The notes beneath the pieces were generated by a model that saw only the letters and a program-made list of their open reading frames with translations, was not told the origin of the DNA and made no database searches. Position numbers and translations under genes: made by a program. This document shows, one piece after another, positions 11,809 through 33,977 of a DNA stretch of 34,344 nucleotides; the first letter of the stretch is position 1; each line of letters starts with the position of its first letter. Source of the stretch: an uncultured Candidatus Bathyarchaeia archaeon (GTDB taxonomy: Archaea > Thermoproteota > Bathyarchaeia > 40CM-2-53-6 > DTGE01); the NCBI GenBank assembly GCA_964489085.1, contig CAZAXO010000003.1, positions 1 to 34,344 of the forward strand, given 5' to 3'.

Positions 11809-14256
11809 TTGGCTCAGAGTATTATTAGCATGGAAGAGGCGAAAAAGGCCCCTATTAGTGAGCTGTTGCAGAAGCTTTCATCAAGTGAGAAAGGACTCTC
11901 TACTTCGGATGTCGATATGAGGCTGCAACAGTACGGGTATAATGAAATAGCTGAAAAAAAAATTAATCCGATCATTAAATTTCTAAAGTATTTCTGGGGA
12001 CCAATTCCATGGATGATCGAGACCGCCCTTATTCTCTCAGTTATAATCCATCATTGGGAAGATTTTTGGATAATATCTGCTTTATTAATGTTAAATGCTG
12101 TGGTTGGTTTCTGGCAGGAGAAAAAGGCGGATAACGCCATTGAACTTTTAAAACAGAAACTCGCCCTCGCAACGCGAGTACTTCGTAACGGCGAGTGGAG
12201 TGAAGTGCCTGCTAGAGAACTTGTCCCCGGAGATATAGTACGTATACGTCTGGGCAATATTATCCCTGCTGATGTTAAACTCGTAAGTGAAGATTATCTA
12301 TTGGTGGATGAATCCGCGTTAACCGGTGAATCTCTACCGGTGGAAAAGCATGTATCCGATATAGCCTACTCTAGTTCGATAGCTCGGCAAGGAGAAATGA
12401 ATGGACTTGTCGTCGCGACGGGGATGAACAGCTACTTCGGTAAAACTGTTAAGCTAGTGGAAGAGGCTGAAACACGGAGCCACCTACAAAAAGCGATAAT
12501 TAAAATAGGTGACTATTTAATAGGTCTTGCAGCAGCCTTAGTCACCGTTATTTTTTTGGTTGGATTGTATCGGTCTGAGAATCTGCTCGATATCCTCCGG
12601 TTCGCACTCGTTTTAACTGTCGCATCAATTCCAGTAGCGTTGCCAGCGGTATTATCGGTTACCATGGCTATCGGAGCAACAGCATTAGCTAAAAAGGAAG
12701 CTATTGTCAGTAAACTGGCTGCCATTGAGGAAATGGCCAGTATAGATATCCTCTGTTCAGATAAGACAGGCACTATTACCAAAAACGCTCTAACGATAGC
12801 TCAGGTGAATGCCTTCGAAGGATTCACCGATAACGATGTGCTGTTGATGGCTACACTCGCATCGAAAGAAGAAGACCCAGATCCCATCGATGAGGCTATT
12901 ATCGCAAAGGCTAAAACCTGTGAATCCATCGTCGCGATGTTAGGTCAGTACAAGACTGTTATGTTTAAGCCGTTTGATCCCATTGTAAAACGTACAGAAG
13001 CCACTGTTAAAGATGCTAACGATAAGATATTTACAGTAGCGAAGGGTGCCCCTCAGGCTATTCTATCACTTGTCGCTGATACTCATGCTCTCAATACACG
13101 TGTAGAGGAGGGAGTGGAGGCTTTCGCCTCTAAGGGGTACCGTGCTCTCGGTGTGGCAAAGACGGATAGAGCGGGGAACTGGAGATATGTCGGCCTCATC
13201 CCTCTCTACGATCCTCCACGTGAAGACTCAGCGGAAACCATTACAACAGCACAATCTATGGGGGTGAAGGTGAAAATGGTGACCGGTGACCACGCTGCTA
13301 TTGCCCGAGAAATCTCATCTCAAGTGAATCTGGGTTCAAATATTATGCTTGCAGATTCTTTTATCGATAAATCTGATAGGGAAGCTCAGACTATCGTTGA
13401 AGAAGCAGACGGCTTTGCTCAAGTCTTTCCTGAGCATAAATATCATATTGTCGAGCTGCTCCAAGGGAAAGGTCATATCGTTGGCATGACGGGGGATGGA
13501 GTTAATGATGCGCCAGCTTTGAAGAAGGCTGATGCGGGGATAGCAGTTGAAGGTGCCACCGACGCTGCGAAATCTGCTGCTGACATCGTTCTCACTAAGC
13601 CTGGACTCTGCGTCATCATTGATGCTCTTAAGGAGAGTCGCAAAATATTCCAGAGAATGACCAATTACTCCATTTATCGTATTGCTGAGACGATTAGGGT
13701 ATTATTGTTTATCACTGTATCGATTATCGTTTTTCGATTTTATCCTGTTACTGCTCTTATGATTGTTTTACTAGCATTATTGAATGATGCTCCTATTATG
13801 ACGATTGCCTATGATACTGTTAAGTATTCAGATAAACCGGATAAATGGAGTATGGTGTCATTACTGGGGCTCGCTACAGTACTGGGAGTTATCGGAGTTT
13901 TCTCATCCTTTGGGATTCTCTATGTTGGGCAGGAGATCTTTCATCTGAATCGTGAGGTTCTCCAGTCATTCATCTATCTGAAGCTTTCTGTCGCGGGCCA
14001 TTTAACAGTCTTTGTTGCGCGAACAAAGAATCATTTCTGGTCGATTAAACCTTCAACGCCTCTATTAGTAGCGGTGATAGTAACGCAGTTGATTGCCACG
14101 TTAATTACTGTCTATGGATTTCTGCTACCTGCTATGGGGTGGAGATTAGCCTTTTTCGTCTGGGCGTATGCTCTCATTATGTTTTTAATAACAGATATTA
14201 TCAAGGTTCACGCTGCAAAAGTTCTAGATCATAGTGATATACGATTTCATAGATAA
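11809..14256 (+). CDS. Plasma-membrane proton-efflux P-type ATPase (P3A)
   Basis: FWGPIPWMIE, TGES, IPVALP, LCSDKTGT, KGAP, FAQVFPEHKY, GDGVNDAP, ALLND (TM6 Asp). Confidence 0.93.
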   Translation: MAQSIISMEEAKKAPISELLQKLSSSEKGLSTSDVDMRLQQYGYNEIAEKKINPIIKFLKYFWGPIPWMIETALILSVIIHHWEDFWIISALLMLNAVVGFWQEKKADNAIELLKQKLALATRVLRNGEWSEVPARELVPGDIVRIRLGNIIPADVKLVSEDYLLVDESALTGESLPVEKHVSDIAYSSSIARQGEMNGLVVATGMNSYFGKTVKLVEEAETRSHLQKAIIKIGDYLIGLAAALVTVIFLVGLYRSENLLDILRFALVLTVASIPVALPAVLSVTMAIGATALAKKEAIVSKLAAIEEMASIDILCSDKTGTITKNALTIAQVNAFEGFTDNDVLLMATLASKEEDPDPIDEAIIAKAKTCESIVAMLGQYKTVMFKPFDPIVKRTEATVKDANDKIFTVAKGAPQAILSLVADTHALNTRVEEGVEAFASKGYRALGVAKTDRAGNWRYVGLIPLYDPPREDSAETITTAQSMGVKVKMVTGDHAAIAREISSQVNLGSNIMLADSFIDKSDREAQTIVEEADGFAQVFPEHKYHIVELLQGKGHIVGMTGDGVNDAPALKKADAGIAVEGATDAAKSAADIVLTKPGLCVIIDALKESRKIFQRMTNYSIYRIAETIRVLLFITVSIIVFRFYPVTALMIVLLALLNDAPIMTIAYDTVKYSDKPDKWSMVSLLGLATVLGVIGVFSSFGILYVGQEIFHLNREVLQSFIYLKLSVAGHLTVFVARTKNHFWSIKPSTPLLVAVIVTQLIATLITVYGFLLPAMGWRLAFFVWAYALIMFLITDIIKVHAAKVLDHSDIRFHR

Positions 14257-14653: not shown

Positions 14654-17194
14654 CTAATTTTTTACTAATTTTATTACCACTTTTGTTATTATTATAGCTG
14701 TAATATAACCCACAATTATTCCAACTAGAAGAATAATCCACTCATATAAACCCAAAGGTACTATATGAAAGAATTCACTCAAAGGCGTATAGATAATTGT
14801 TAATTGTAATAAAACTGAGCCAATTAAAGCAATAAGAAGCCATTTATTTGAAAACCAGCTTAGTTTTTCTTGATATCGTATACTAGCAATTCTGACAAAT
14901 TCATAAAGAATGAATCCTGTAAATAAAGTACTCCTAGCTGCTTCTATACCTAAAGGTAAAACAAAGAAGAATGTAGCAAATAAAACAATCGTCTTTTTAA
15001 TACCAATTGTTCCGATTAGCCAGCCTAATTGTTTATTGATTATTGGCTCTCCTTTTTTTCTTGGGGGTCGACGCATAATGTCTGGTCTTGCAGGATCAAC
15101 GCCTAAAGCAAGAGCAGGCAAGCCATCTGTTAGTAAATTAATCCATAACAAGTGTACAGGTAGGAGTATAGGCTCTTTGAGTGTTAAAAATAAAGTAGCT
15201 AAAAACAATACTCCTACTTCTGCAAAATTGCATACAAAGAGATAGTTAACAAATTTTCTTATGTTATCAAAAATTCTTCGTCCTTCTTTTATTGTAGTTG
15301 TTATTGTTGCAAAATTGTCATCAAGTAAGATTACATCACTAGCTTCTTTAGCTACCCCGGTTCCTCTAATTCCCATAGCTAATCCAACATCTGCTTTTTT
15401 TAAGGCTAAAGCATCATTAACACCATCTCCTGTCATTGCTACCCTATTATCCTTCTTTAAAATCTCGAGGATGCGTAACTTATGAAATGGAGAAATTCGT
15501 GCAAAAATATTTACTCTTGAATTTAATTTCTCTTCAAGCTCTTCATCACTAAGTTCTTCTAAATAGTTGCCTTCTAGAACTTCACTTTTTAAACCTATCT
15601 CACTTGCTATGGCCTTAGCAGTTGAAGGATTATCACCCGTTAGCATAATAACTCTTATCCCAGCTGTACTACAATCAGTCAAAGCCTGTCCAACTTTTGG
15701 TCTAGGAGGGTCTATCATTGCTTGTAAACCTAACCAAACTAAATTCCTTTCGATATTTTTGTTAGGATTTTTTGTATCTTTGAAAGCAAAACCTAAAACC
15801 CTTAGAGCGTGAGAAGCAAACTCTCTATTCTGTTTTAAAATTCTTTTCTTTGCTGCTTTGCTGAATCCTATAGTTTTTTCGTCATGATAAATCCTATTGC
15901 AGTTTTCTATCAGAACTTCAGGGGCTCCTTTTGAATATACAAAATACTTATTTAAATTGTCATTTTTATAAACAACACTCATCATTTTTCTTTTAGATGT
16001 AAAAGAAATTTCATTTATTCTTTTATATTCTTTTTCCAAATTTTCTTTTACAAATCCAGATTTGTCTGAAATTTTTCTTAAGGCAACTTCTGTTTGATCC
16101 CCAAAATATTTTCTATTTCCTTCTTCATCATATCCTATATTAGAGTTGTTGCATAATGCCCCACAAACAAGAAGATGATCCATCTTGGCAATACTTGTCC
16201 TATCAATTTTAGAAACGTCAAAAACATTATTGCTGAAAAAGAATCTGGTTACTGTCATTTCATTTTTTGTTAAAGTTCCTGTTTTATCTGTGCAAACAAT
16301 GTCTACAGCCCCTGCTGACTCGGTTACAGCTAATCTTCTTATCAATGCATTCTTCTTTGACATCACCTTTGCTGCAACAGCAAGAGTTAGTACTACAACT
16401 GCTGGCAAGCCCTCTGGTATTGCTGCAACAGCTAAAGAAATGGCTGTTAGAAATGAAAGATATAAACTATATTTTAAAAGACTGACAAACATTACTATTG
16501 CTATTATACTTATTATCGCGAAAGAAATCTTCTTGCTGAATTTAGCTATTTCAACCTGAAACGGTGTTTTTTCTTCTCCCATTGTTTGAAGCTTTTCTGC
16601 CATACTTCCAACTTTTGTTTGCATCCCTGTCTTTGTAACTAAAGCTTTCGCATTACCAATAGTAACGAAAGTATTCATAAAAATTTCATCAGATACCTTT
16701 TTCTCGACGGACTTAGACTCTCCTGTTAAAATAGATTCATCAATTTTGAGACTAAAACATTCAATTAGTTTAGCATCTGCAGGAACCATATCTCCAGATT
16801 CAAGCAAAATTAAATCTCCAGAAACAATTTCTGTTACCTTTATCTCCTTTTCTTTCTCATCCCTGACAACTTTTGTTTTAGGGACAGCAATTTTTTGAAG
16901 AGCTTCTATTGTTTTTTCAGATTTATATTCCTGAAGGAAGCCAGAAATTCCAGATGCAAAAACTATCAATAAAATTAAAATTGTATCGATAATATTGACT
17001 TCCTGTTCTGGAAGGAAACCAATTGCCCACGAGATTATAGCTACCACAATCAGAATTAAAATCAATGGAGAGGTAAATTGAGATATAAATATCTTTATTG
17101 GACTTATCTTATAGACTCTCTCTATTTCATTTCTTCCATATTTTTCCAGCCTTTTTCTTGCTTCTTTGTTTGTTAATCCAAATTCACCTGGCAT
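14654..17194 (-). CDS. Cation-transporting P-type ATPase, P2A (Ca2+-type)
   Basis: TGES, AVAAIPEGLP, CTDKTGTLT, FTSKRKMMS, KGAPE, GDGVNDA, LWINLLTDGLPALALG. Confidence 0.93.
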   Translation of the reverse strand: MPGEFGLTNKEARKRLEKYGRNEIERVYKISPIKIFISQFTSPLILILIVVAIISWAIGFLPEQEVNIIDTILILLIVFASGISGFLQEYKSEKTIEALQKIAVPKTKVVRDEKEKEIKVTEIVSGDLILLESGDMVPADAKLIECFSLKIDESILTGESKSVEKKVSDEIFMNTFVTIGNAKALVTKTGMQTKVGSMAEKLQTMGEEKTPFQVEIAKFSKKISFAIISIIAIVMFVSLLKYSLYLSFLTAISLAVAAIPEGLPAVVVLTLAVAAKVMSKKNALIRRLAVTESAGAVDIVCTDKTGTLTKNEMTVTRFFFSNNVFDVSKIDRTSIAKMDHLLVCGALCNNSNIGYDEEGNRKYFGDQTEVALRKISDKSGFVKENLEKEYKRINEISFTSKRKMMSVVYKNDNLNKYFVYSKGAPEVLIENCNRIYHDEKTIGFSKAAKKRILKQNREFASHALRVLGFAFKDTKNPNKNIERNLVWLGLQAMIDPPRPKVGQALTDCSTAGIRVIMLTGDNPSTAKAIASEIGLKSEVLEGNYLEELSDEELEEKLNSRVNIFARISPFHKLRILEILKKDNRVAMTGDGVNDALALKKADVGLAMGIRGTGVAKEASDVILLDDNFATITTTIKEGRRIFDNIRKFVNYLFVCNFAEVGVLFLATLFLTLKEPILLPVHLLWINLLTDGLPALALGVDPARPDIMRRPPRKKGEPIINKQLGWLIGTIGIKKTIVLFATFFFVLPLGIEAARSTLFTGFILYEFVRIASIRYQEKLSWFSNKWLLIALIGSVLLQLTIIYTPLSEFFHIVPLGLYEWIILLVGIIVGYITAIIITKVVIKLVKN

Positions 17195-20338: not shown

Positions 20339-21127
20339 ATGAAAACAATCAACGTAGCTTCAAGAAAGAAGATGCTGTTTGAGGTTATTATAAAGGCAGG
20401 AGATCTGATAGCTTCAAAGTTTATGTCTATGTCACGAATCGAAATGAAAGAAAAATCGAAACATGAGATTGTGACGGAAGTTGATATTGAAGCAGAATCA
20501 ATAGTCATCAATGCGATTAAAAATAGTTTTCCAGATGATATGATCCTTAGTGAAGAAGCTGGAGGAGAGAAGATTTTTAAAAATTTTTGTTGGATCATCG
20601 ATCCTCTCGATGGAACAACAAACTTCTTTCTTGGGAATCCGGTCTTTACAACTTCCATTGGTTTAACCTATGATGGAGAGATCGTGTTGGGGACTACCTA
20701 TCACCCAATTCTCCGCCAACTCTTCAGTGTTGAGAAAGGACAGGGTTTTCAAGTTAATGAAGAGAAAAGGACTGTGAGTATAACAAGCACTCTCTCAGAT
20801 GCATTTATTGTTTTCTGTCATGGTAATGATGATGCAAATATAGAGGTTATTACTTCATTCTTTTCACTTCTTAAACCACGCTGTAAGTCATTTCGTCAAC
20901 TCGGCTCTGCTTCTTTTGAACTAGCCCTCGTCGCAGCAGGAAAAATCGATGCCTTCATTATGCCTGGTGTCAACCCATGGGATGTGGCTGCAGGTGTTCT
21001 GATGGTTAGAGAAGCATCCGGCCTTGTCGTTGACCTGAATGGAAAAGAATGGAATTTTAATAGTAAAGATCTTCTTGCCTGTAACGAAAAACTATTAGAT
21101 CCTCTACTGACTATTTTGAGAAGCTAA
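20339..21127 (+). CDS. Inositol monophosphatase family protein (SuhB/FIG)
   Basis: VTEVD, LSEE, WIIDPLDGTTNF, GSA, PWDVAAG; GGAGG RBS. Confidence 0.93.
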   Translation: MKTINVASRKKMLFEVIIKAGDLIASKFMSMSRIEMKEKSKHEIVTEVDIEAESIVINAIKNSFPDDMILSEEAGGEKIFKNFCWIIDPLDGTTNFFLGNPVFTTSIGLTYDGEIVLGTTYHPILRQLFSVEKGQGFQVNEEKRTVSITSTLSDAFIVFCHGNDDANIEVITSFFSLLKPRCKSFRQLGSASFELALVAAGKIDAFIMPGVNPWDVAAGVLMVREASGLVVDLNGKEWNFNSKDLLACNEKLLDPLLTILRS

Positions 21128-21133
21128 GCTGTT

Positions 21134-21799
21134 TCACGAATATTTTTTATGCAACTCTTTTAGAGTATTGTAAAACGATTGTAGAAGAAGATAGCATGAA
21201 GTGGCTCCAGGATCTTGATGACCGATAGAGCGTTCACCAAGTCTACTTGAACGCCCTATTTTTGAGAGGAGAGGAATAGTTGACTTCATACCTTCTCTAG
21301 CGCTGTGAACACTTTTTTCAACGGCTGTTAACAGATGGTCACCATTCGCTGAAGCTTCTTTTAGGATCTGAGTAGCAGGATGTATCGCATCCAACATTGT
21401 TTTATCACCAAGTTTCGATTTGCCTCGTTCTTTTACTCCAATCTCGGCAGCTTGAAACATAGCAACGAGGTCACTAAGATTTATTTCTTTTTTCCCAATA
21501 ACTTCTTGAGACGCCCTAAGAAATGCCGTACCAAAGAGCGGGCCTACAGCTCCACCCACAGCCGAAATTAGGATCGTTGCAGCACCCTGTAGAATTAAAC
21601 CCACATCTTCAATACCAAGTTTCTCGACTTCAATCCTCACTGCCTGAAAGCTTTTAGCCATTGACACTCCATGATCACCATCCCCCAACGCAGCATCAAG
21701 TTCAGAAAGATAATCTTTATTCTCCTCAATCATGTCTGCCATTCGTTTAAGAATTTCACGCATATCTTCAGCTGTTATAGTTTCATTCAAAGTACCCAC
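21134..21799 (-). CDS. dhaL: Dihydroxyacetone/erythrulose kinase nucleotide-binding subunit
   Basis: LDAALGDGDHG, GGAVGPLFG, GDKTMLDA, GRSSRLGERSIGHQDPGA. Confidence 0.92.
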   Translation of the reverse strand: MGTLNETITAEDMREILKRMADMIEENKDYLSELDAALGDGDHGVSMAKSFQAVRIEVEKLGIEDVGLILQGAATILISAVGGAVGPLFGTAFLRASQEVIGKKEINLSDLVAMFQAAEIGVKERGKSKLGDKTMLDAIHPATQILKEASANGDHLLTAVEKSVHSAREGMKSTIPLLSKIGRSSRLGERSIGHQDPGATSCYLLLQSFYNTLKELHKKYS

Positions 21800-21800
21800 G

Positions 21801-22814
21801 TCATCTATTCCTTTTTAATCGTTGAACGTAACATGGCGTATCTGCCGGCGTATCAATAAGTCGCTTTAATTCATTATCCATCTTCATTAGCGTAATAGAA
21901 AAGCCTGCCATCTCAAGTGCGGAAAAGTATTCCCCTATAAAAGACCGATAAATACCTATCTCTCCACTGTTTAGCATTTCCGCTACTTTCTTAAACACAA
22001 TGTAGAGCTCGAGTTGTGGCGTTGCTCCAAGACCGTTAATGAGGGCAACCACCTCATCTCCTCTCTTGAAGGGGAGATCAGTTAGGAGTATTTCCATCAA
22101 ATCTTCAGTGATTTCATTTGCTGTCTTCATTTTCATTCGTTTAACACCTAACTCACCATGATGACCAACACCAAACTCTATTTCATCATCCTTTAAGGTG
22201 AACGTTGGTTTCCCTAATGTAGGGACTGTGCATGGAGAGTGAGCCACACCAATAGTACGCGTCCACTTATTCACTTTCACTGCTACCTCCTTCACTTCTT
22301 TAAGGGTTGCACCTTCTTCTGCTCTTGCACCACAAGTTTTCCATGCTAAGAATTCACCAACAACACCACGACGATCATCGATTCTATCCGGTGGAGCTGA
22401 GCCAGCATCATCAGTAGCGATCACCTGTTCAACCTCTAAACCATCACTTTCAGCTAGTTCAGCTGCCATATCAAAGTTCATGACGTCTCCAGAATAGTTG
22501 CCAAGTAGAAAAAGAAGGCCTCTACCTCCATCAACCTCTTTTGCAGCTTCATAAATAGAATTTGCTGGAGGAGACGTAAATATTTCACCAACCGCTACAG
22601 CATCTAACATTCCTTTTCCAATATAACCGATGAAAGCAGGTTTATGGCCTGAACCACCGCCCGTCACCAACGCCACTTTACCCTTTATTGGAGCATCTCT
22701 GCGAACAATACTTCTCACAGTCTTCAGTTTTCTCACGTAATAACTATGAGCGGTTACGAATCCCTCCACCATTTCATCAGTTGCAGTTAAAGGATCATTT
22801 AGAAATTTCTTCAT
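21801..22814 (-). CDS. dhaK: Dihydroxyacetone/erythrulose kinase substrate-binding subunit
   Basis: MKKFLND, GGGSGHKP, GEIFTSP, NYSGDVMNF, EFGVGHHGELG, NGLGATP. Confidence 0.92.
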   Translation of the reverse strand: MKKFLNDPLTATDEMVEGFVTAHSYYVRKLKTVRSIVRRDAPIKGKVALVTGGGSGHKPAFIGYIGKGMLDAVAVGEIFTSPPANSIYEAAKEVDGGRGLLFLLGNYSGDVMNFDMAAELAESDGLEVEQVIATDDAGSAPPDRIDDRRGVVGEFLAWKTCGARAEEGATLKEVKEVAVKVNKWTRTIGVAHSPCTVPTLGKPTFTLKDDEIEFGVGHHGELGVKRMKMKTANEITEDLMEILLTDLPFKRGDEVVALINGLGATPQLELYIVFKKVAEMLNSGEIGIYRSFIGEYFSALEMAGFSITLMKMDNELKRLIDTPADTPCYVQRLKRNR

Positions 22815-22829
22815 TGTAATTCAACTCGC

Positions 22830-23282
22830 TTACTTCTTCCGATACTTCTTATCCAACTCATCGATTTCTGATATCTTTCTTGCAGAAGTACCTCCCGTAA
22901 ATTCACTCGCCAGCCACACAGTTACAATAGCTTTTGCTAACTCAAAACCTATAACTCTCGCTCCTAACGCTAAGACCTGTGCATTATTGCTTTTCCTCGC
23001 TCTCTCTGCTGAGTAGATATCATGGCAGACTGCACCTCGAATACCTGGAAACTTATTCGCACATATTGCCATTCCTATTCCTGTGCCACATACTAAAATT
23101 GCACGATCATAATTATGTATCAAAAACGTTTCACAAGCTTTTGTAGCGACTATTGGATAATCAATTGGATTCTCAGAGTTACATCCTATATCAAGGACAT
23201 TGTGACCAAGTTTGCTCAAGTAAGTTTTTAACTCTTGTTTTAGTTTATATCCCGCATCATCAGAACCCAAAAGGATATTCAT
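22830..23282 (-). CDS. rpiB: RpiB-family sugar-phosphate isomerase, EryI/DerI-like
   Basis: CGTGIG catalytic motif, ANK.PGIR; non-canonical SDDAG, ERARKSNNAQ and GGTSARK. Confidence 0.9.
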   Translation of the reverse strand: MNILLGSDDAGYKLKQELKTYLSKLGHNVLDIGCNSENPIDYPIVATKACETFLIHNYDRAILVCGTGIGMAICANKFPGIRGAVCHDIYSAERARKSNNAQVLALGARVIGFELAKAIVTVWLASEFTGGTSARKISEIDELDKKYRKK

Positions 23283-23310
23283 AGAACTCGTGAAAATAAT
23301 GGAGTAATTG

Positions 23311-23323
23311 ATTATAAAAGATT
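23311..23323 (-). promoter_or_regulatory. Putative TATA box for rpiB-dhaK-dhaL
   Basis: Minus strand AATCTTTTATAAT about 29 nt upstream of the ATG, consistent with a leaderless transcript. Confidence 0.55.
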
Positions 23324-23413
23324 AGTTTTCAATCGTTTTACAAACCATTGAAGCCTGTACCTATATTATCATTAATCGTTTGCTATATTCAGAATAATAG
23401 TATGGATAGTCGA

Positions 23414-24424
23414 CTAATATTTCTTTTCTTTCAGATGCGGAAGCACTTCTTTACCATAGACCTCGATAAATTTCTTTTCATCTGGACTTGAACTTTGAAT
23501 ATAAAGAATATCTACTCCAATATCGATTATTCTTTGTAATCGTTTGATATGCTCTTCAATGTCTGTGCTAATGATCCATGTCTCCCCGAGGTTCTCATCA
23601 CCTACAAATGCCGCATTTTCATCTATTTCTCGTGGGTCATAAATTTCATATTTAAAGGTAAAGGGTAAAAGGGTCCCAGCCCAGAATCGACATGATTCTA
23701 AAGCTTTCTCATAATCTTCATCATACGAGACGCCTATCTCTAACGACTTTACGAGAGCGCTAGGATCTCTGTCCATACTTTTTGCTCCTTTCTCAAAAGC
23801 AGGAAAGAGACTATTTTTAAAGTAAGCAAGAGCATCGTTACTATACACAAAACTGTTGATTCCGTCGGCTAATCGCCCAGCTATCTCAGCGACTTTAACT
23901 CCCGACGTAGAGACAATTAGAGGTACTGGATACCGTGGTTTTGTGTAGAGGTTTGCCTTTTTTAAGGTGTAGTATTTTCCTTTGAAGGACACAAATGCTT
24001 TTTCCCAAAGCATCTTTATGACTCGAATTGCCTCCTCGAGGCGTTCAACTCTTTCCTTTACTGGGGGCCATTGAAATCCAACAGGTACTTCATTCATCGC
24101 CTCTCCTACTCCAACACCAAGAAAGATCCGCTTCGGATATATGTAACCAAGGGTTGCAAATGCCTGAGCGACGATAGCTGGATTATATCTAAATGTGGGG
24201 GTGGAAACTTCTGTTCCTAAAACCACATGTTTCGTTCTCTCAGCTGCAGAGGCGAGCCAGACCCATGCAAATCCTCCTGCTGCGTTCGTATGTGACCATG
24301 GATGAAAATGATCGCTGCTTATAATACGTTGAAAGCCCCCTTTTTCAGCTAAAACTACATTATTAAGAAGAGTGATAGGATCATATTGTTCCTGCGGTAT
24401 CATATATCCGACTTCTAAATTCAT
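23414..24424 (-). CDS. F420-dependent LLM-class dehydrogenase (FGD/Adf-like)
   Basis: QEQY.P, SDHFHPW, TPTFRYNPAIVAQAFATL, GVGVGEAMNE. Confidence 0.9.
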   Translation of the reverse strand: MNLEVGYMIPQEQYDPITLLNNVVLAEKGGFQRIISSDHFHPWSHTNAAGGFAWVWLASAAERTKHVVLGTEVSTPTFRYNPAIVAQAFATLGYIYPKRIFLGVGVGEAMNEVPVGFQWPPVKERVERLEEAIRVIKMLWEKAFVSFKGKYYTLKKANLYTKPRYPVPLIVSTSGVKVAEIAGRLADGINSFVYSNDALAYFKNSLFPAFEKGAKSMDRDPSALVKSLEIGVSYDEDYEKALESCRFWAGTLLPFTFKYEIYDPREIDENAAFVGDENLGETWIISTDIEEHIKRLQRIIDIGVDILYIQSSSPDEKKFIEVYGKEVLPHLKEKKY

Positions 24425-24460
24425 CGCTTCTACAAACCTAATACTAAATTTATTATTCCG

Positions 24461-24472
24461 AATAAAAGATTT
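24461..24472 (-). promoter_or_regulatory. Putative TATA box for the LLM gene
   Basis: Minus strand AAATCTTTTATT, nearly identical to the rpiB upstream element. Confidence 0.45.
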
Positions 24473-24478
24473 AGTCTA

Positions 24479-25351
24479 TTATTCCAATGCATAATCGAAT
24501 CGTTCACCTATACGGAGTATTTTACAAGTGATCTCTAATTTTACTCGATTTATGATCTCTTCTACGAGGTGTGGATTACATAATGCAATGTCCCAGATAT
24601 CCCAGTGTATAGGAATCAGTATTCGAGCTCCTAAATATTGAGCGAACTCCACCGCTTCCTCTGGTGTATTATACCATCTCTCCCCAGGTGGATTCACACC
24701 GATACTGATTAACGCAATTTCAATGTTATACTTTTTTCCTATTGTTTTAAATATTGAATCGGCAAGTGAATCTCCGGAGTGAAAGATACTTATATTCGCA
24801 CATTCAAAGAGATAAGTATTCGCTGTTTTAGGAATGGGATCTTTAGAAGGGAGCGCCTTTATCGTAATATTATTAATTTGTTTTTTTTGATATTCTTTCA
24901 AAGTGAGGATTTGATTTGAGGGAATTTTCCAACTTTTTAAGAGTTCCGTAACGCTTTTAGGTCCTATAAAGATAGACTCTGTATTACCACTAATAGGAAA
25001 GACGAAATCTTCACTGAGATGATCGAGATCTTCATGTGTAATAACTGTGGCATCTATACTTTTCACTTCGTCTGGATTAAAGGGAATAGGAACCATTCGA
25101 TGAAGTATTCGACCTCCAGAACTAATCGACCCTCCACAATAAGGATCGATATAAATTGTTGCTTGCGATGTCTTTAAAATGAAACCGGCCCCTCCAATCG
25201 ACCAAAGGGCTATAGCCCCTTCATGTACCTTGTAATTCTCTACTGCTGTTAAAAACCAATCATACCATTCGCTTTTTAAAGATGATAATGGTAATGGTTT
25301 TCCTAGTCGAAGATAATATGCTGCGCCTTTCCCCATAGATCTTATCACCAT
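24479..25351 (-). CDS. MBL-fold metallo-hydrolase, UlaG (L-ascorbate-6-P lactonase)-like
   Basis: LWSIGGAGF, YIDPY, THEDLDHL (variant of HxHxDH), FHSGDS, IPIHWD. Confidence 0.85.
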   Translation of the reverse strand: MVIRSMGKGAAYYLRLGKPLPLSSLKSEWYDWFLTAVENYKVHEGAIALWSIGGAGFILKTSQATIYIDPYCGGSISSGGRILHRMVPIPFNPDEVKSIDATVITHEDLDHLSEDFVFPISGNTESIFIGPKSVTELLKSWKIPSNQILTLKEYQKKQINNITIKALPSKDPIPKTANTYLFECANISIFHSGDSLADSIFKTIGKKYNIEIALISIGVNPPGERWYNTPEEAVEFAQYLGARILIPIHWDIWDIALCNPHLVEEIINRVKLEITCKILRIGERFDYALE

Positions 25352-25467
25352 AAGAGTATTGAGTTAAGTAAATGAATAATATTATGTAAGATTAAACTAA
25401 TAGTCGTCATTATGATACTCTGGATCATACCTAAAGCTGCTAAGTGATTTTTAGCTTGTTGGAACAC

Positions 25468-25899
25468 CTATTGTGAGATATTATCAATTTGAAGTTCAAA
25501 TGTACCAATTACTCCATTTACGTCTACAGTATAGATTCCTGCTGGTAATCCAATCACATTAAGGGGTATCACTTCTTCAAATGGGATAATACCATCTACA
25601 CATTTATCATAAGGTCGAGACGTTGAAATTGAAATGAAAAAGGTATCACCTTCATGGATTATTGTTACCTTATTGATTTCAGTACAACTGTCAGGAAATT
25701 CTCCCCGGACAATAACATTAACTTGAACTGGAAAGGACTCTAGAATCAGAATATCAATTTTCGTTACTTTAGCTTCCATGATAATAATCGAAGATACAGG
25801 TGTTTCTTTTTGTTGAATCATAAGTATACTGCCGATAAGTAACACAGCTATCAAGACCACTAAGAGTGAAGAAATATTAATTATCCGTCTACAAAACAA
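25468..25899 (-). CDS. Secreted/membrane-anchored hypothetical protein
   Basis: N-terminal hydrophobic helix; ILESFPVQVNV..GEFPDSC...C...GLPAGIYTVDVNG beta domain with two Cys. Confidence 0.7.
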   Translation of the reverse strand: MFCRRIINISSLLVVLIAVLLIGSILMIQQKETPVSSIIIMEAKVTKIDILILESFPVQVNVIVRGEFPDSCTEINKVTIIHEGDTFFISISTSRPYDKCVDGIIPFEEVIPLNVIGLPAGIYTVDVNGVIGTFELQIDNISQ

Positions 25900-26014
25900 T
25901 GTTCTATCAACAATGTTTAGAGTTGATCAATACATTACCTGAGTTTAGAACTTTAATTTAATAAAAAAATAGCTAGCTTGTTTATTCGTACTCCTCTTTT
26001 AACCTGAATCGGTT

Positions 26015-26457
26015 TTATACGTTTCTAAAATTTATTCTAAATAATGAGTTTTCTTCAGTATATTTGTCATTGGTACACCATATTATTCTCCCATTTGTAT
26101 CGATTAATACGATATAGATCGCTTCTTCGTTGGGAATATTTAACTGTCGTTTAAATTCTTTTTTATTAATATAGAGAGTAATAGTTCTCTCACATGCTTC
26201 TTTATCTGATATTCCAGAACGCATTCCACCATTTATCATCCACCTGATCAATAGATAAGAAGAGTTGAGTGTAGGTAACTCGTAAAACGATAAAGTTAGA
26301 TTATTCTGGACTAGTATTGCCTGAAAAGGAAGCCATTGTTCCACTAATTCTTGATGCTCACTTTTAAACGGGATAATGACGATGTTTAATTCACCTTTAA
26401 GATCGTTGGGCAATTGGAATCTTTGACCAAGTTTGTAGCTGATAGTGTTGGAAACAT
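26015..26457 (-). pseudogene. Frameshifted thioredoxin-like (ATP10-like) gene
   Basis: ATG at 26457 gives MFPTLSATNL; after a frameshift near 26428 it continues GQRFQLPNDLKGELNIVIIPF..HQELVEQW...IVLIDTNGRIIW. Confidence 0.6.
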
Positions 26458-31390: not shown

Positions 31391-32827
31391 ATGGTGTATC
31401 GAATGCCTCGATATGGTCGAGTTACAGAAGGATTAGTAAGTGAACTTGAAGGTATTGTAGGATCTGAAAATGTTACAACGAGGGCTGAGGAGATCCTATG
31501 TTACATGAGAGATTCCTCACCATTGAAATGTAAAGCTGATGTGATTGTTAGAGTAACTACCACAGAACAGGTTGCTGCTATTCTCAAGGTAGCTAATGAG
31601 AATAGGATTCCTGTGACATCTAGGGGTGCTGGAACTGGTGCAGCCGGTTCAGCGTTACCAGTTATTGGCGGGATTATTCTTGATATGTATTGTATGAATA
31701 AGATACTTGCTCTTAACGTTGATAATCAGATTGTTATTGTTGAGCCTGGGCTTGTATGTGATACACTTAACGAAGAGTTGCTGAAATATGGTTTTTTCTT
31801 TCCACCAGATCCTGCGAGTAGTCCGGCTTGTACGATTGGGGGGATGGTGGGAAATGATGCTGCGGGAAATAAAGCGATAAAATATGGTTCAACTCGAGTT
31901 TTTGTTTTATGGCTTGAAGTAGTATTGGCTAGTGGAGAAATTATCTATACTGGTTCTAAGACGTTGAAATCTGTTTCAGGTCTTGACTTAACTCGGTTAT
32001 TTGTCGGTTCTGAAGGATCTCTGGGAGTGTTTACAAAGATCTGCTTGAAGATAGTGCCTTTACCAAAGTACTATGCAACTGGTGTTTTAAGTTACGATTC
32101 TGTTGAGGCGTTAGTGAAGTCATCAATGAAAATTCGACGAGCGAGAATTATTCCAGAGATGATAGAGTTTATGAATAAGAAAACAATGAAGGCCGCTTTT
32201 GAATATGCTGGGATAACAGATTTTCCAGATGGAAATTTTATGATGATAGATATTGGTGGTGACGCTGAGGAAGCCGTTGCAGAAAGTCTTAATAAGTGTA
32301 TGAAGATCTGTAAAAATGAGAAGCCAAGACACTCTGAGAAGACGACAGATTCTATGTATAGATTGAAATTTATTTCAGCAAGAAAAGCTGCTTTACCAGC
32401 TCTAGCAAGGATTAAGCCAACAACGACTATGGAAGACTGTACTGTTCCCCCATCAAAACTTCCTGAGGCTGCTAGAAAAATAGAGGAAATTCCTACCCAA
32501 TTAGCTGTTGAAGGGATTGAAATAGGTAATTTCGGTCATATTGGGGATGGAAATATGCATCCTACCTTTCTATATGATGAGCGCATAGAAGAGCAGAGAA
32601 GTGCGTTCTTGAAAGGATTGGATATCCTTTATCATAATATTGTCTTTCCACTTGGAGGAAGTATCACCGCAGAACATGGTATTGGATTAATTCGAGCACC
32701 ATATCTACAGGAGGAGCATCCAACAGCGCTTAAGTGGATGAGAGAACTAAAGAAACTCTTTGACCGAAACTTGATCCTCAATCCTGGAAAAGGAAAAGGA
32801 GGCCCCTATCCTCTTGAAAGAAACTGA
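31391..32827 (+). CDS. FAD-linked 2-hydroxyacid oxidoreductase (GlcD/D-lactate dehydrogenase family)
   Basis: RGAGTG, FPPDPAS, TIGG, KYG, GSEGSLG, GHIGDGNMH, AEHGIG, LNPGK. Confidence 0.93.
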   Translation: MVYRMPRYGRVTEGLVSELEGIVGSENVTTRAEEILCYMRDSSPLKCKADVIVRVTTTEQVAAILKVANENRIPVTSRGAGTGAAGSALPVIGGIILDMYCMNKILALNVDNQIVIVEPGLVCDTLNEELLKYGFFFPPDPASSPACTIGGMVGNDAAGNKAIKYGSTRVFVLWLEVVLASGEIIYTGSKTLKSVSGLDLTRLFVGSEGSLGVFTKICLKIVPLPKYYATGVLSYDSVEALVKSSMKIRRARIIPEMIEFMNKKTMKAAFEYAGITDFPDGNFMMIDIGGDAEEAVAESLNKCMKICKNEKPRHSEKTTDSMYRLKFISARKAALPALARIKPTTTMEDCTVPPSKLPEAARKIEEIPTQLAVEGIEIGNFGHIGDGNMHPTFLYDERIEEQRSAFLKGLDILYHNIVFPLGGSITAEHGIGLIRAPYLQEEHPTALKWMRELKKLFDRNLILNPGKGKGGPYPLERN

Positions 32828-33977
32828 TACACCTCTGAAAAACTCTTCACTTAGAGAATTCAAAGAGGATGTACAGAAATGTATGCGATGCGGTTTTTGT
32901 GTAGCACTCTGCCCAGTAGAGGAGTATATGGGATTCGAGTCGAATAGTCCAAGAGGCAGGATGCAAACGATTAAAGCATTAATCGACGGAGATCTGAGAG
33001 TTAACGAGTATCTTATGACGAGACTCTATAATTGTACGCTATGCGGCTACTGTAAATGGCGGTGCCCTCCAGGAGTTAACACCGTTGACGCGATACAAGA
33101 GACTCGAACATATTTTGTTGCAAACAACTGCTACCCTGATATTCACGCTGAATTTGCACAGAGAATAACGAAGTATAAAAATCCATACGCTGAGCAGCAG
33201 ACAAAGCGTCTTCTATGGATGTTGACATCTCAAAAGTTACCGAAAAAAGCTGAAGTAATCTATTTTGTTGGCTGTACCTCAGCATTAAGATCACCGGAAA
33301 TTGCCGAGTCAACATTTCAATTACTAGCTAGCGCTAATGTAGACTTCACGGTTATTCCTGAGGAGATCTGCTGTGGCTCAATTATGTTAAGAACAGGAAA
33401 TACAGAAATTGGGAAGAGACTTGCTGAGAAGAATATAGAGATGATTGAAGCGAGTGGAGCGTCAACCATAGTATTTTCATGTCCTGGCTGCTACAAAACA
33501 TTCTCAACCGATTATCCGAATCTTTTAAAGGAATCTATAGATTTTGAGTTGAAACATATTTCTGAGTACCTCGTAGAAATGGATCAGCTACAGTTCAGTA
33601 TACCGATGAAGAAAAGAGTTGTGTATCATGATCCATGTCATCTTGGCAGACATTTAGAGATTTTTGAGCCACCTCGAGAGGTGATCAATCGAATACCAGG
33701 AGTAGAATTAGTTGAAATGGAGCGAAGTAAGATGAGCTCATTCTGTTGTGGTGCTGGAGGAGGCGTTCGAGGAGCCTACCCTGATATTTCCCTTCAAATT
33801 GCTGAAAAGCGAGTAGAAGAAGCTACTGCAACTCAAGCAATGATACTCTCCTCTGCTTGTCCATTTTGCAAAAGAAATCTGAAAGATACAGTAAAAGAAA
33901 GGAAAAAAACTATGAAAGTACATGATATCGTTGAATTAGCCGCTAAATCTATTAAAAAACCTAGACTAACATTGTAG
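32814..33977 (+). CDS. Fe-S oxidoreductase, GlcF/HdrD-like (two 4Fe-4S motifs plus two CCG domains)
   Basis: CMRCGFCVALCP, CTLCGYCKWRCP, YFVGC, ICCG, CPGC, YHDPCHLGR, FCCGAGGG, ACPFC; overlaps the upstream gene by 14 nt. Confidence 0.93.
   Translation: MKETDTPLKNSSLREFKEDVQKCMRCGFCVALCPVEEYMGFESNSPRGRMQTIKALIDGDLRVNEYLMTRLYNCTLCGYCKWRCPPGVNTVDAIQETRTYFVANNCYPDIHAEFAQRITKYKNPYAEQQTKRLLWMLTSQKLPKKAEVIYFVGCTSALRSPEIAESTFQLLASANVDFTVIPEEICCGSIMLRTGNTEIGKRLAEKNIEMIEASGASTIVFSCPGCYKTFSTDYPNLLKESIDFELKHISEYLVEMDQLQFSIPMKKRVVYHDPCHLGRHLEIFEPPREVINRIPGVELVEMERSKMSSFCCGAGGGVRGAYPDISLQIAEKRVEEATATQAMILSSACPFCKRNLKDTVKERKKTMKVHDIVELAAKSIKKPRLTL

Follow-up and report, generated by a model that had tools for sequence, protein, structure and literature searches.

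The stretch of DNA analysed here, referred to as the window, is 34,344 nucleotides (nt) long and comprises an entire contig (C3) of the genome of an uncultured Candidatus Bathyarchaeia archaeon (G000; 2.33 Mb in 281 contigs, 94.8% complete). It carries five co-oriented genes, encoding a metallo-beta-lactamase-fold hydrolase (MBL), a putative F420-dependent luciferase-like dehydrogenase (LLM), an RpiB-family isomerase, and the DhaK and DhaL subunits (together DhaKL) of a ketose kinase, which converge on a gene for an IMPase-family phosphatase (Table 1). In our reading the cluster is a mosaic unit of carbohydrate catabolism that joins an archaeal MBL and LLM to a bacterial-type RpiB-DhaK-DhaL module, and it suggests a new route, driven by F420, by which small sugars or sugar alcohols may be broken down. 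An earlier inspection of the letters of this DNA (the sequence-only reading) had described the same six open reading frames (ORFs) in the same orientations, and the families that it assigned to all six were upheld by Pfam and NCBIfam.

Table 1. Features of the window, with Pfam scores in bits (aa, amino acids; GC3, G+C fraction at third codon positions).
Feature	Position	Strand	Size	Pfam match (bits)	Remarks
MBL, UlaG-type metallo-beta-lactamase-fold hydrolase, candidate lactonase	24479-25351	-	290 aa	Lactamase_B_2 (59.5)	
LLM, putative F420-dependent luciferase-like dehydrogenase, Adf/FGD clade	23414-24424	-	336 aa	Bac_luciferase (148.6)	
AT-rich spacer LLM-RpiB	23283-23413	-	131 nt		TATA-like TTTTATAA ~30-37 nt upstream of the RpiB ATG
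RpiB-family sugar-phosphate isomerase, non-canonical, bacterial-type	22830-23282	-	150 aa	LacAB_rpiB (173.8)	
DhaK subunit, two-subunit dihydroxyacetone/erythrulose-type kinase	21801-22814	-	337 aa	Dak1 (400.6)	
DhaL nucleotide-binding subunit	21134-21799	-	221 aa	Dak2 (170.5)	GTG start
IMPase-family phosphatase	20339-21127	+	262 aa	Inositol_P (199.6)	Convergent with DhaL
Small ORF upstream of MBL	25468-25899	-			
Small ORF upstream of MBL	26015-26413	-			
P-type cation ATPase	11809-14256	+			GC3 0.40
P-type cation ATPase	14654-17194	-			GC3 0.22
FAD-linked oxidase, then CCG/4Fe-4S protein	31391-33977	+		FAD_binding_4 + FAD-oxidase_C (oxidase)	GlcD/GlcF-like or D-lactate-dehydrogenase-like pair

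The spacers are 54 nt (MBL/LLM), 131 nt (LLM/RpiB), 15 nt (RpiB/DhaK), 1 nt (DhaK/DhaL) and 6 nt (DhaL/IMPase). The LLM-RpiB spacer, with its TATA-like run, may hold an internal promoter; inspected by eye, three spacers are all AT-rich with TATA-like runs, as expected in a genome of 35% GC. Co-orientation of five genes alone is not remarkable, and what goes beyond chance is that sub-modules of the cluster recur elsewhere. One contig of the probable source run covers positions 21780-26000 with zero differences. Independent marsh runs hold identical short pieces, one of which (X3, 22706-22872) bridges the DhaK/RpiB junction and another of which (X2, 23325-23475) extends from the RpiB-LLM spacer into LLM; contigs of ~95% identity in run X4 give cover in 27 of the 30 bins of the stretch. 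No single independent piece from RpiB to LLM is listed among these runs, positions 23290-23324 falling between two X2 pieces.

The LLM scores 242 bits against TIGR03557 (F420_G6P_family), above the subfamily cut-off of 210.4, and aligns end to end with the FGD equivalog at 286.5 bits, below the cut-off of 420 for membership. Its best phmmer matches among solved chains are Adf (1RHC, 296.8 bits) and the FGD structures 5LXE (265.1) and 3B4Y (FGD1, 260.9), followed more weakly by 9HAV (223.7; a Thermomicrobium FGD with glucose, by its title in the Foldseek listing) and FGD2 (9FP4, 167.3). Nine LLM-family matches are found in the source genome, and at E<=1e-40 the window LLM matches 2680 proteins of the database. 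Statements from the literature draw here and below on excerpts of the articles cited; those of one phylogenetic study place Adf, FGD2 and uncharacterised archaeal sequences in the basal DH1 clade (Mascotti 2018, PMC6279831), and those of a 2021 review list Adf, Fgd, Fsd and fHMAD as F420-reducing LLM dehydrogenases (PMC8498797).

Residues of the LLM were read from phmmer alignments to 3B4Y, 5LXE, 1RHC and 9FP4, with numbering carried over 120 homologues, and their roles (catalytic, F420-contacting and phosphate-binding) follow PMC13434993. The catalytic Glu12, His39, Trp43 and Glu108 (Glu13, His40, Trp44 and Glu109 of FGD1) and the F420-contacting Asp38, Val73, Gly105, Gly107 and Asn111 (Asp39, Val74, Gly106, Gly108 and Asn112) are all present, and no fewer than 114 of the 120 homologues keep each of them. 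The FGD1 phosphate ligands Lys198, Lys259 and Arg283 correspond to Asp197, Lys258 and Thr282, so that one of three is kept, and this Lys258 is also found in Adf. Proper alignment showed the residue reading made earlier to be essentially right, with three corrections. The loss of the Lys198 and Arg283 equivalents was confirmed (Asp197; Thr282 in ETW), as was the catalytic His in SDH (His39); the catalytic Glu assigned to an 'NE' motif is Glu108 and sits in GVGE, both glutamates being present; the stretch aligned to the TSGK lysine is YSND rather than SFVY, with no lysine either way; and the retained third ligand, Lys258, had been overlooked. An AlphaFold2 (AF2) model (pLDDT 88.6) gave Foldseek TM scores of 0.89 to both 1RHC (43% identity) and 3B4Y (38%). 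Confidence is low in its lid segments, where averages of 51-67 were obtained for residue blocks 41-50, 111-120 and 251-270, so the model cannot size the pocket and is silent on specificity. From these residues the LLM is predicted to be an F420-dependent enzyme of the Adf/FGD clade without an FGD-type phosphate pocket.

The resemblance to Adf raises the possibility that the LLM serves only to reduce F420 at the expense of small secondary alcohols or diols, unlinked to the sugar genes beside it. No solved relative is closer than Adf, the two proteins have the lid motif FWAG-x-L-x-P-x-x-FKY-x-x-YDP in common, and the linkage of the LLM to other genes is not conserved. The substrate pocket, however, appears to differ. 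Met175 and Cys249, cited in a comparison of Adf and FGD pockets in which the Adf site is very narrow (PMC6279831), are replaced by the smaller or more polar Ser174 (Ser in FSD, Gly in FGD) and Thr251, so that the LLM lacks the narrow-pocket pair. In addition, loop 190-197 is polar, three residues longer than in Adf, and carries a residue missing from 113 of the 120 listed homologues; the loop is common only to P0001 (93% identical), P0002 (78%) and a 76%-identical paralogue on contig C258. The neighbours of LLM relatives are also mostly carbohydrate genes of varied kinds (AP_endonuc_2, PGDH_C, MFS and ABC sugar transporters, SIS/BadF, GFO/IDH/MocA, Amidohydro_2, MR_MLE, an MBL), and we regard a purely Adf-like role as very unlikely. 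The C258 paralogue (C258:336-1340, L028) lies on a 3-kb contig, its sole neighbour being an ORF without a Pfam match.

The window RpiB exceeds the cut-off of the TIGR01120 rpiB equivalog (153.3 against 138.65 bits) and stays below that of DerI (160.5 against 240). Compared with 3HE8, it keeps the catalytic Cys65 and Thr67 of the CGTG motif together with Asp8 and Asn99, and has Asp9, Ser98, Thr132, Ser133 and Lys136 in place of His9, His98, Arg132, His133 and Arg136, which we take to be the ring-opening His and the phosphate-binding His/Arg residues. Ser98, Ser133 and Lys136 are common to 40 of 44 bacterial RpiB rows, with DhaKL nearby or not, and therefore mark an RpiB subfamily rather than the linkage. 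The DerI score minus the rpiB score is +7 bits for the window protein, -5 to +41 for seven relatives and -58 for a canonical member (L093), and none of them reaches the DerI cut-off. We consider the window RpiB to be non-canonical, leaning toward DerI/EryI on these residues and scores. It is accessory, since an RpiA is encoded on contig C8 (222.7 bits); a housekeeping role was considered and rejected in view of this RpiA and the non-canonical residues.

The nearest relatives of this RpiB are bacterial. All 43 RpiB loci found come from Clostridia, other Bacillota, Acidobacteriota, Anaerolineales and Aerophobetes; identity is 45-57% to most bacterial relatives and 54-57% for the top rows. An RpiB-family match is present in 15 of 401 genomes of the class, the other 14 being at most 36% identical to the window protein. 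DhaK aligns over the full length of the Dak1 profile and scores 390.2 bits against TIGR02363 (cut-off 406.25), and DhaL scores 205.1 against TIGR02365 (cut-off 138.3). A DhaK is encoded by 17 of the 105 genomes searched in the order; that of the window is 60% identical to the DhaK of an Aerophobetes locus (L080) and 42-53% identical to 15 bathyarchaeial DhaKs. A tree of 24 rows unites 12 bathyarchaeial DhaKs in a clade (100/100) that excludes the window DhaK, which groups instead with those of L080 and of a Halanaerobiaceae locus (L106; support 90/80). The closest relatives of the window LLM and MBL, by nearest matches of both proteins, are from Bathyarchaeia, with the best LLM orthologue in the 401 class genomes being 60% identical; closer LLM orthologues, P0001 (93%, on a 3.4-kb contig) and P0003 (66%, on a 16-kb contig), come from outside this sample. 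RpiB-DhaK-DhaL was probably acquired by horizontal transfer.

Examination of the bacterial loci revealed that 10 of the 43 place DhaK, DhaL or both beside the RpiB, while 18 have a TIM paralogue nearby, 16 a transketolase, 11 a class-II aldolase and 7 a transaldolase. The closest bacterial cluster, L080, has the order FGGY-DhaK-RpiB-DhaL-ZnADH-FGGY-ZnADH-AP_endonuc_2, in which a Zn-dependent polyol-type dehydrogenase (ZnADH, alcohol dehydrogenase family) takes the place held by the LLM in the window; L106 reads AP_endonuc_2-DhaK-sugar ABC-RpiB-DhaL-transaldolase-transketolase. In another Bathyarchaeon (L112), an LLM of a different subfamily (LLM-B), a xylulokinase equivalog, DhaK and DhaL follow one another with gaps of 37, 47 and 11 nt, and an MBL orthologue lies divergent to them. 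The L112 DhaK belongs to the native bathyarchaeial clade and the window DhaK is of bacterial type, so the arrangement of dehydrogenase and DhaKL arose with DhaKs of two clades. No DhaM was matched in the source genome and none was seen in the annotated bacterial modules; the best match to enzyme I of the phosphotransferase system (PTS) in the genome search was 159.2 bits (cut-off 341.7). The phosphoryl donor of DhaKL is therefore presumably ATP. Two further observations concern these families: the Ser/Ser/Lys subfamily in the bacterial RpiB loci L069-L109 usually lies beside a TIM paralogue, transketolase or class-II aldolase, its NCBIfam name remaining ribose-5-phosphate isomerase B; and the native bathyarchaeial DhaK-DhaL loci L049-L062 carry a recurring, shuffled set of Glyoxalase_4, PF04199 cyclase, AA_permease, FGGY kinases and class-II aldolases and, once, an aldehyde:ferredoxin oxidoreductase with a 2-oxoacid dehydrogenase complex.

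We hypothesize that the LLM, with F420 as hydride acceptor, would make a free ketose from an unphosphorylated hydroxylated substrate, and that DhaKL would trap it by phosphorylation, erythrulose being the most likely short ketose and dihydroxyacetone a possible one; a DerI/EryI-like RpiB would then isomerise the ketose phosphate to an aldose phosphate (erythrose-4-phosphate, erythrose-4-P). In the default variant, that of the sequence-only reading, a C4 (or C3) polyol would be oxidised directly at a secondary hydroxyl. We assign a probability of roughly 0.4 to the supply of free erythrulose, or possibly dihydroxyacetone, by the LLM to DhaKL and RpiB. The suggestion is made because the LLM gene is co-directional with RpiB-DhaK-DhaL and stands immediately ahead of them; because its nearest solved relative, Adf, is a secondary-alcohol dehydrogenase, two Adf pocket positions are smaller or more polar in the LLM (Ser174, Thr251) and two of the three FGD phosphate ligands are missing; and because L080 has a polyol-type dehydrogenase in the place of the LLM and L112 has LLM-B with DhaKL. 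The tetritol-to-erythrose-4-P logic is proposed because DhaK, the TIM paralogue, transketolase and transaldolase accompany bacterial RpiB at the frequencies given above, and because the window RpiB is accessory and non-canonical, with a DerI score above its rpiB score. As a whole the proposal is partly supported: comparative context supports the kinase and isomerase half well, and the dehydrogenase half follows from gene position and from a residue pattern that would fit other substrates equally. The substrate of the LLM, the direction of its reaction, the coupling of the modules and what becomes of the product are all inferred. The literature searched yielded no account of a tetritol or ketose-kinase pathway linked to F420.

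The remaining gene of the run, MBL, matches both Lactamase_B_2 and Lactamase_B_3. Its best NCBIfam match is the UlaG L-ascorbate-6-phosphate lactonase (NF008688; 118.4 bits, below the cut-off of 306), and its best PDB matches are the UlaG structures 2WYL (91.6 bits, aligned over residues 26-266) and 3BV6. The metal motif reads H-E-D-L-D-H against H-x-H-x-D-H in UlaG; the variant H-x-D-x-D-H is common to three close orthologues (57-60% identity), and H106, D110, H111, H191, D194 and H249 are invariant in 5 sequences. The protein is a shortened UlaG homologue and a candidate lactonase, which points to lactone chemistry. A glyoxalase-II role was considered and rejected, the protein being UlaG-like and matching these two models rather than the general Lactamase_B (PF00753), although Glyoxalase_4 genes recur near bathyarchaeial DhaKL. 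The family is present in 5 of the 401 class genomes (E<=1e-40). An LLM immediately adjoins MBL in three of the four close copies, on the same strand in the window and divergently in L112 and L051; the fourth copy (L114) adjoins UvrAB genes. The LLM of L112 and L051 is LLM-B, 32-33% identical to the window LLM and without Glu12 and Lys258. Among 80 loci of the MBL family, LLM-B lies directly beside a UlaG-like MBL in five, namely L112, L051, a convergent pair in G068 and two Nitrososphaerales, and with the window included the adjacency occurs in three orientations (same-strand, divergent and convergent). In four bacterial loci MBL has a Zn-dependent dehydrogenase as its immediate neighbour, and these loci lie in sugar-acid-like clusters. 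The loci from lactobacilli are operons of the ula type, and ~35 loci from Halobacteria have neither an LLM nor a Zn-dependent dehydrogenase adjacent.

The MBL/LLM-B pairs, divergent or convergent and with LLM-B as a second subfamily of the FGD/Adf clade, come from Bathyarchaeia and Nitrososphaerales and span L112:4819-6852, L051:917-2909, L187:9010-10984, L222:3806-5732 and L227:2847-4775. Ala_racemase_N/D-ser_dehydrat genes are often found near such pairs (L051, L055, L227), and a Mo-hydroxylase in the Nitrososphaerales loci. In bacteria, L236:1911-4977, L237:3930-6848 and L240 contain a fixed run of Zn-ADH, UlaG-like MBL and DUF4432, in clusters that also carry an iron-dependent alcohol dehydrogenase (Fe-ADH), a DctP TRAP binding protein, 2-hydroxyacid dehydrogenase, GFO/IDH/MocA, a TIM-like gene and a DHDPS-family aldolase; these look like an uncharacterised sugar-acid or lactone pathway.

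The recurrence of the pair leads to the chief rival of our proposal, in which the cluster would consist of two independent modules. The LLM would act on free aldoses as an F420-dependent dehydrogenase and MBL would follow as the lactonase, taking the aldose through aldonolactone to aldonate, a pair analogous to FGD with 6-phosphogluconolactonase and to Mycobacterium tuberculosis FGD2 (Mtb-FGD2), and RpiB-DhaKL would be a separately acquired erythrulose or dihydroxyacetone salvage module that merely landed beside them. Aldose-to-lactone oxidation suits the low potential of F420. UlaG lactonases are the best solved and curated relatives of MBL, and an LLM stands directly beside MBL in the window, L112, L051, L187, L222 and L227; the bacterial MBL relatives next to Zn-dependent dehydrogenases keep company with the DctP TRAP protein, DHDPS-family aldolase and GFO/IDH/MocA, and LLM relatives occur beside Amidohydro_2 (L137), an MBL (L008) and an acid-sugar-dehydratase-like MR_MLE (L158). 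The kept Glu12, His39 and Trp43 correspond to residues with which FGD1 and FGD2 contact the C1 hydroxyl of the sugar, and the TATA-like box of the 131-nt spacer would suit separate modules. Mtb-FGD2, which lacks the phosphate pocket and has Asp for Lys198 as in the window LLM, oxidises D-glucose, D-ribose and other free aldoses, and no polyol according to the excerpts (2026, PMC13434993). The LLM is nevertheless nearer to Adf than to FGD1 or FGD2 by the scores given above, no aldonate dehydratase, kinase or aldolase was found in the window, and coincidence is a poor account of the two occurrences of DhaKL beside an LLM, in the window and in L112, where the DhaKs come from different clades. The metal motif of MBL also departs from that of UlaG, lactonase activity being putative, and the ~35 Halobacteria loci have no adjacent LLM. 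On balance we judge the two-module alternative to be somewhat unlikely.

Two other schemes would give MBL a place. As a variant of our ketose-supply proposal, MBL could open a C5 (or C4) aldono-1,4-lactone, the LLM could oxidise the aldonate at C3 with F420, and loss of CO2 from the resulting beta-keto acid could give erythrulose or dihydroxyacetone, from which DhaKL and RpiB would lead to erythrose-4-P. We think this quite unlikely. If true, it would be a free-sugar, F420-driven counterpart of oxidative pentose-phosphate logic in which no gene is left without a role. The association of UlaG-like hydrolases with FGD/Adf-clade LLMs in Bathyarchaeia and Nitrososphaerales would then be accounted for, as would the presence behind the LLM of ketose kinases that prefer different chain lengths (xylulokinase in L112, DhaKL in the window), and the thermodynamic objection to F420 set out below would fall away. 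Alternatively, the LLM could act downstream: DhaKL and RpiB would make an aldose phosphate, the LLM would oxidise it in the manner of FGD, and MBL would open the phospholactone. Lys258 is retained, the FGD equivalog aligns end to end at 286.5 bits and the UlaG substrate is, by its family name, phosphorylated; yet the Lys198 and Arg283 equivalents are absent, Lys258 is shared with Adf, which uses no phosphate, and the gene order runs the opposite way. To our knowledge, erythrose-4-P also cannot form a lactone-ready ring. We therefore hold this downstream role to be highly improbable.

Several lines of evidence weigh against supply of a ketose by the LLM, beginning with its chemistry. Polyol oxidation is unreported in the literature consulted on the Adf/FGD clade, whose known substrates are small secondary alcohols, aldose-6-phosphates and free aldoses, and the excerpts of the FGD2 study report Mtb-FGD2 as inactive on sorbitol, xylitol, glycerol and isopropanol (PMC13434993). 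The free-aldose activity of FGD2 means that the lack of a phosphate pocket does not by itself imply a polyol substrate, and it provides an experimental precedent for the alternative of a free aldose whose lactone would go to the UlaG-like hydrolase next door. With potentials of -290 mV for acetone/isopropanol and -340 mV for F420 (PMC8498797), oxidation of an alcohol to a ketone would be uphill for F420 and would need to be pulled by the kinase. The direct-polyol variant moreover leaves MBL without a role, despite the recurrence of MBL-LLM and MBL-Zn-dehydrogenase pairs. The substitution for an NAD enzyme expected in the sequence-only reading stands as far as gene position goes, the LLM occupying the place of the Zn-dependent dehydrogenase of L080, and lacks a precedent of polyol activity in the literature consulted on the clade.

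At the level of the locus, conservation of the LLM-rpiB-dhaKL linkage elsewhere, on which that reading also depended, was not borne out. MBL, RpiB, DhaK and DhaL were not found near LLM relatives of 36-59% identity in any of 15 genome and 41 metagenome loci (0/56; flanks of up to 6 kb), and the linkage is carried by none of the 43 RpiB loci (0/43) and none of the 14 DhaK loci of the order (0/14), where no RpiB lies beside DhaK. In G082, an LLM of the window family and a DhaK are ~818 kb apart on one contig. Outside this organism and its near-identical relatives in other samples, the exact LLM-RpiB-DhaKL linkage has so far not been encountered. The 131-nt spacer with its TATA-like box may split the LLM and RpiB-DhaKL into two transcription units, and Pfam annotation of the window yielded no transporter or regulator in the cluster. 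No compositional trace of import was seen for RpiB, DhaK and DhaL, whose GC3 values (0.29-0.32) are inside the range of neighbouring genes, so any transfer of the module would not be recent.

The genome as a whole gives a divided picture of F420 supply and lacks an evident outlet for erythrose-4-P. Genes for making F420, which the sequence-only reading wished to see confirmed, are present in part: CofD (355.8 bits; C56:9723-10628) and two copies of CofE (207.6 and 190.3 bits; C5:12320-13060 and C81:3189-3821) exceed their cut-offs, CofC is weak (36 bits, cut-off 105), and the genome search gave no match to CofG and a CofH signal of 23.9 bits (cut-off 374.1). Of 31 genomes searched, comprising G000 and 30 relatives, 3 have a CofH above its cut-off; the five same-family relatives, two of them 98% complete, are not among these 3. 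Since CofG and CofH were not found, the lineage would depend on external Fo or on another synthase; it probably salvages Fo or uses an unknown Fo synthase. No Fno exceeds its cut-off in the genome. With CofD, two CofE and 9 LLM-family matches, use of F420 by the organism is plausible. As to the sink, transaldolase and type-I DAHP synthase were not found in the genome search, and the sole transketolase signal is an N-terminal fragment of 57 residues (36.1 bits; C129:6479-6649, L176:1460-1675) with an in-frame TAA within its glycine-rich G-G-H-*-G-G, starting ~190 nt before the end of contig C129. It may represent a pseudogene, a misassembly or a newly acquired gene interrupted by the gap, and no transketolase was found in any of the five same-family relatives. 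A broken transketolase, with no transaldolase or DAHP synthase, leaves erythrose-4-P without an evident sink, as far as a weak genome search can tell. The genome does contain five FGGY kinase matches and many matches to Zn-dependent dehydrogenases. The full path from tetritol through erythrulose and erythrulose phosphate to erythrose-4-P with F420, as first suggested, finds backing in RpiB with a split DhaK/DhaL as a recurrent bacterial tetritol-like module, while the polyol step, the MBL left unexplained and the lack of an evident sink count against it.

The convergent IMPase lies below the NCBIfam equivalog cut-offs for HisN (171.5, cut-off 275), SuhB (166.2, 332) and FBPase/IMPase (122.3, 264), has a 34%-identical paralogue on contig C33, and shows no conserved linkage in any related locus seen; its membership of the system is uncertain. 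One of the two small ORFs upstream of MBL has an N-terminal hydrophobic segment without a Pfam match, and the other has a weak match to ATP10 (24 bits). Elsewhere in the window, a Na/H exchanger adjoins the P-type cation ATPases, and an FAD-linked oxidase is followed by a CCG/4Fe-4S protein (Table 1).

Bathyarchaeia and other TACK archaea encode many LLMs of the FGD/Adf clade, and only four kinds of characterised activity are described in the literature consulted on this clade. By setting an LLM ahead of a ketose kinase and an isomerase and next to a lactonase-like hydrolase, the cluster suggests a concrete set of candidate substrates. Should activity on them be confirmed, abundant sediment archaea that catabolise unphosphorylated sugars, polyols or sugar acids would pass the electrons to F420 rather than NAD(P), with consequences for the way in which they gain energy from carbon of plant origin. 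Further leads are the recurring MBL-LLM pair and the absence, across the lineage, of a recognised Fo synthase beside kept CofD and CofE.

The individual components can be compared with known systems. Anaerobic glycerol dissimilation uses GldA with DhaKLM, and there, as in the scheme proposed here, a free ketose made by a dehydrogenase is phosphorylated by a split DhaK/DhaL; the window differs in its F420 rather than NAD chemistry, in a genome where no DhaM or PTS was found, and in having RpiB inside the kinase module, dihydroxyacetone phosphate needing no RpiB. E. coli UlaG (2WYL) is the best solved and curated relative of MBL and conserves its downstream His/Asp positions, and differs in the length of the solved chain (360 residues against 290 in MBL) and in the motif, which is H-x-D-x-D-H in MBL; unlike the lactobacillus loci, the window lacks UlaD, UlaE and UlaF. 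Adf of Methanoculleus (1RHC) shares with the LLM the catalytic His/Glu/Trp, the absence of Lys198 and Arg283 and a very similar lid motif. It differs by Met175/Cys249 in place of Ser174/Thr251 and by a shorter loop at 190-197, that of the LLM being longer and polar, and the LLM stands among sugar genes, not in a methanogenesis context. Mtb-FGD2 (Rv0132c; 9FP4, 9FPP) is described in the excerpts as an F420-dependent D-glucose dehydrogenase (PMC13434993). Like the LLM it has no phosphate pocket and has Asp at the Lys198 position; unlike the LLM (167.3 bits, 33% identity) it lacks the Lys259 equivalent, and it is a secreted mycobacterial protein.

For the module as a whole, the comparison is with bacterial tetritol catabolism. 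LerK and DerK are DhaK/DhaL-family proteins, and Brucella pairs a TIM paralogue with RpiB. In Mycolicibacterium smegmatis, as Huang et al. reportedly described in 2015, tetritols are catabolised through EltD/DthD, LerK/DerK, LerI and DerI to erythrose-4-P. In contrast to that system, the window has an F420-dependent LLM rather than an NAD enzyme, a kinase split in two subunits and an extra UlaG-like hydrolase, and its cluster is without a LerI-like gene, transporter, regulator, transketolase or transaldolase, with an RpiB under the DerI cut-off (160.5 against 240). Routes from tetritols to erythrose-4-P through EltD or DthD, LerK or DerK, LerI and DerI also appear in the excerpts of more recent work (PMC10733421, PMC12780249). 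The bacterial relatives of the window module resemble such routes in having Zn-dependent dehydrogenases, AP_endonuc_2 (LerI-like), transketolase and transaldolase nearby, and the M. smegmatis system, like the window, places a DhaK/DhaL-type kinase beside an RpiB-family isomerase with a dehydrogenase ahead of them.

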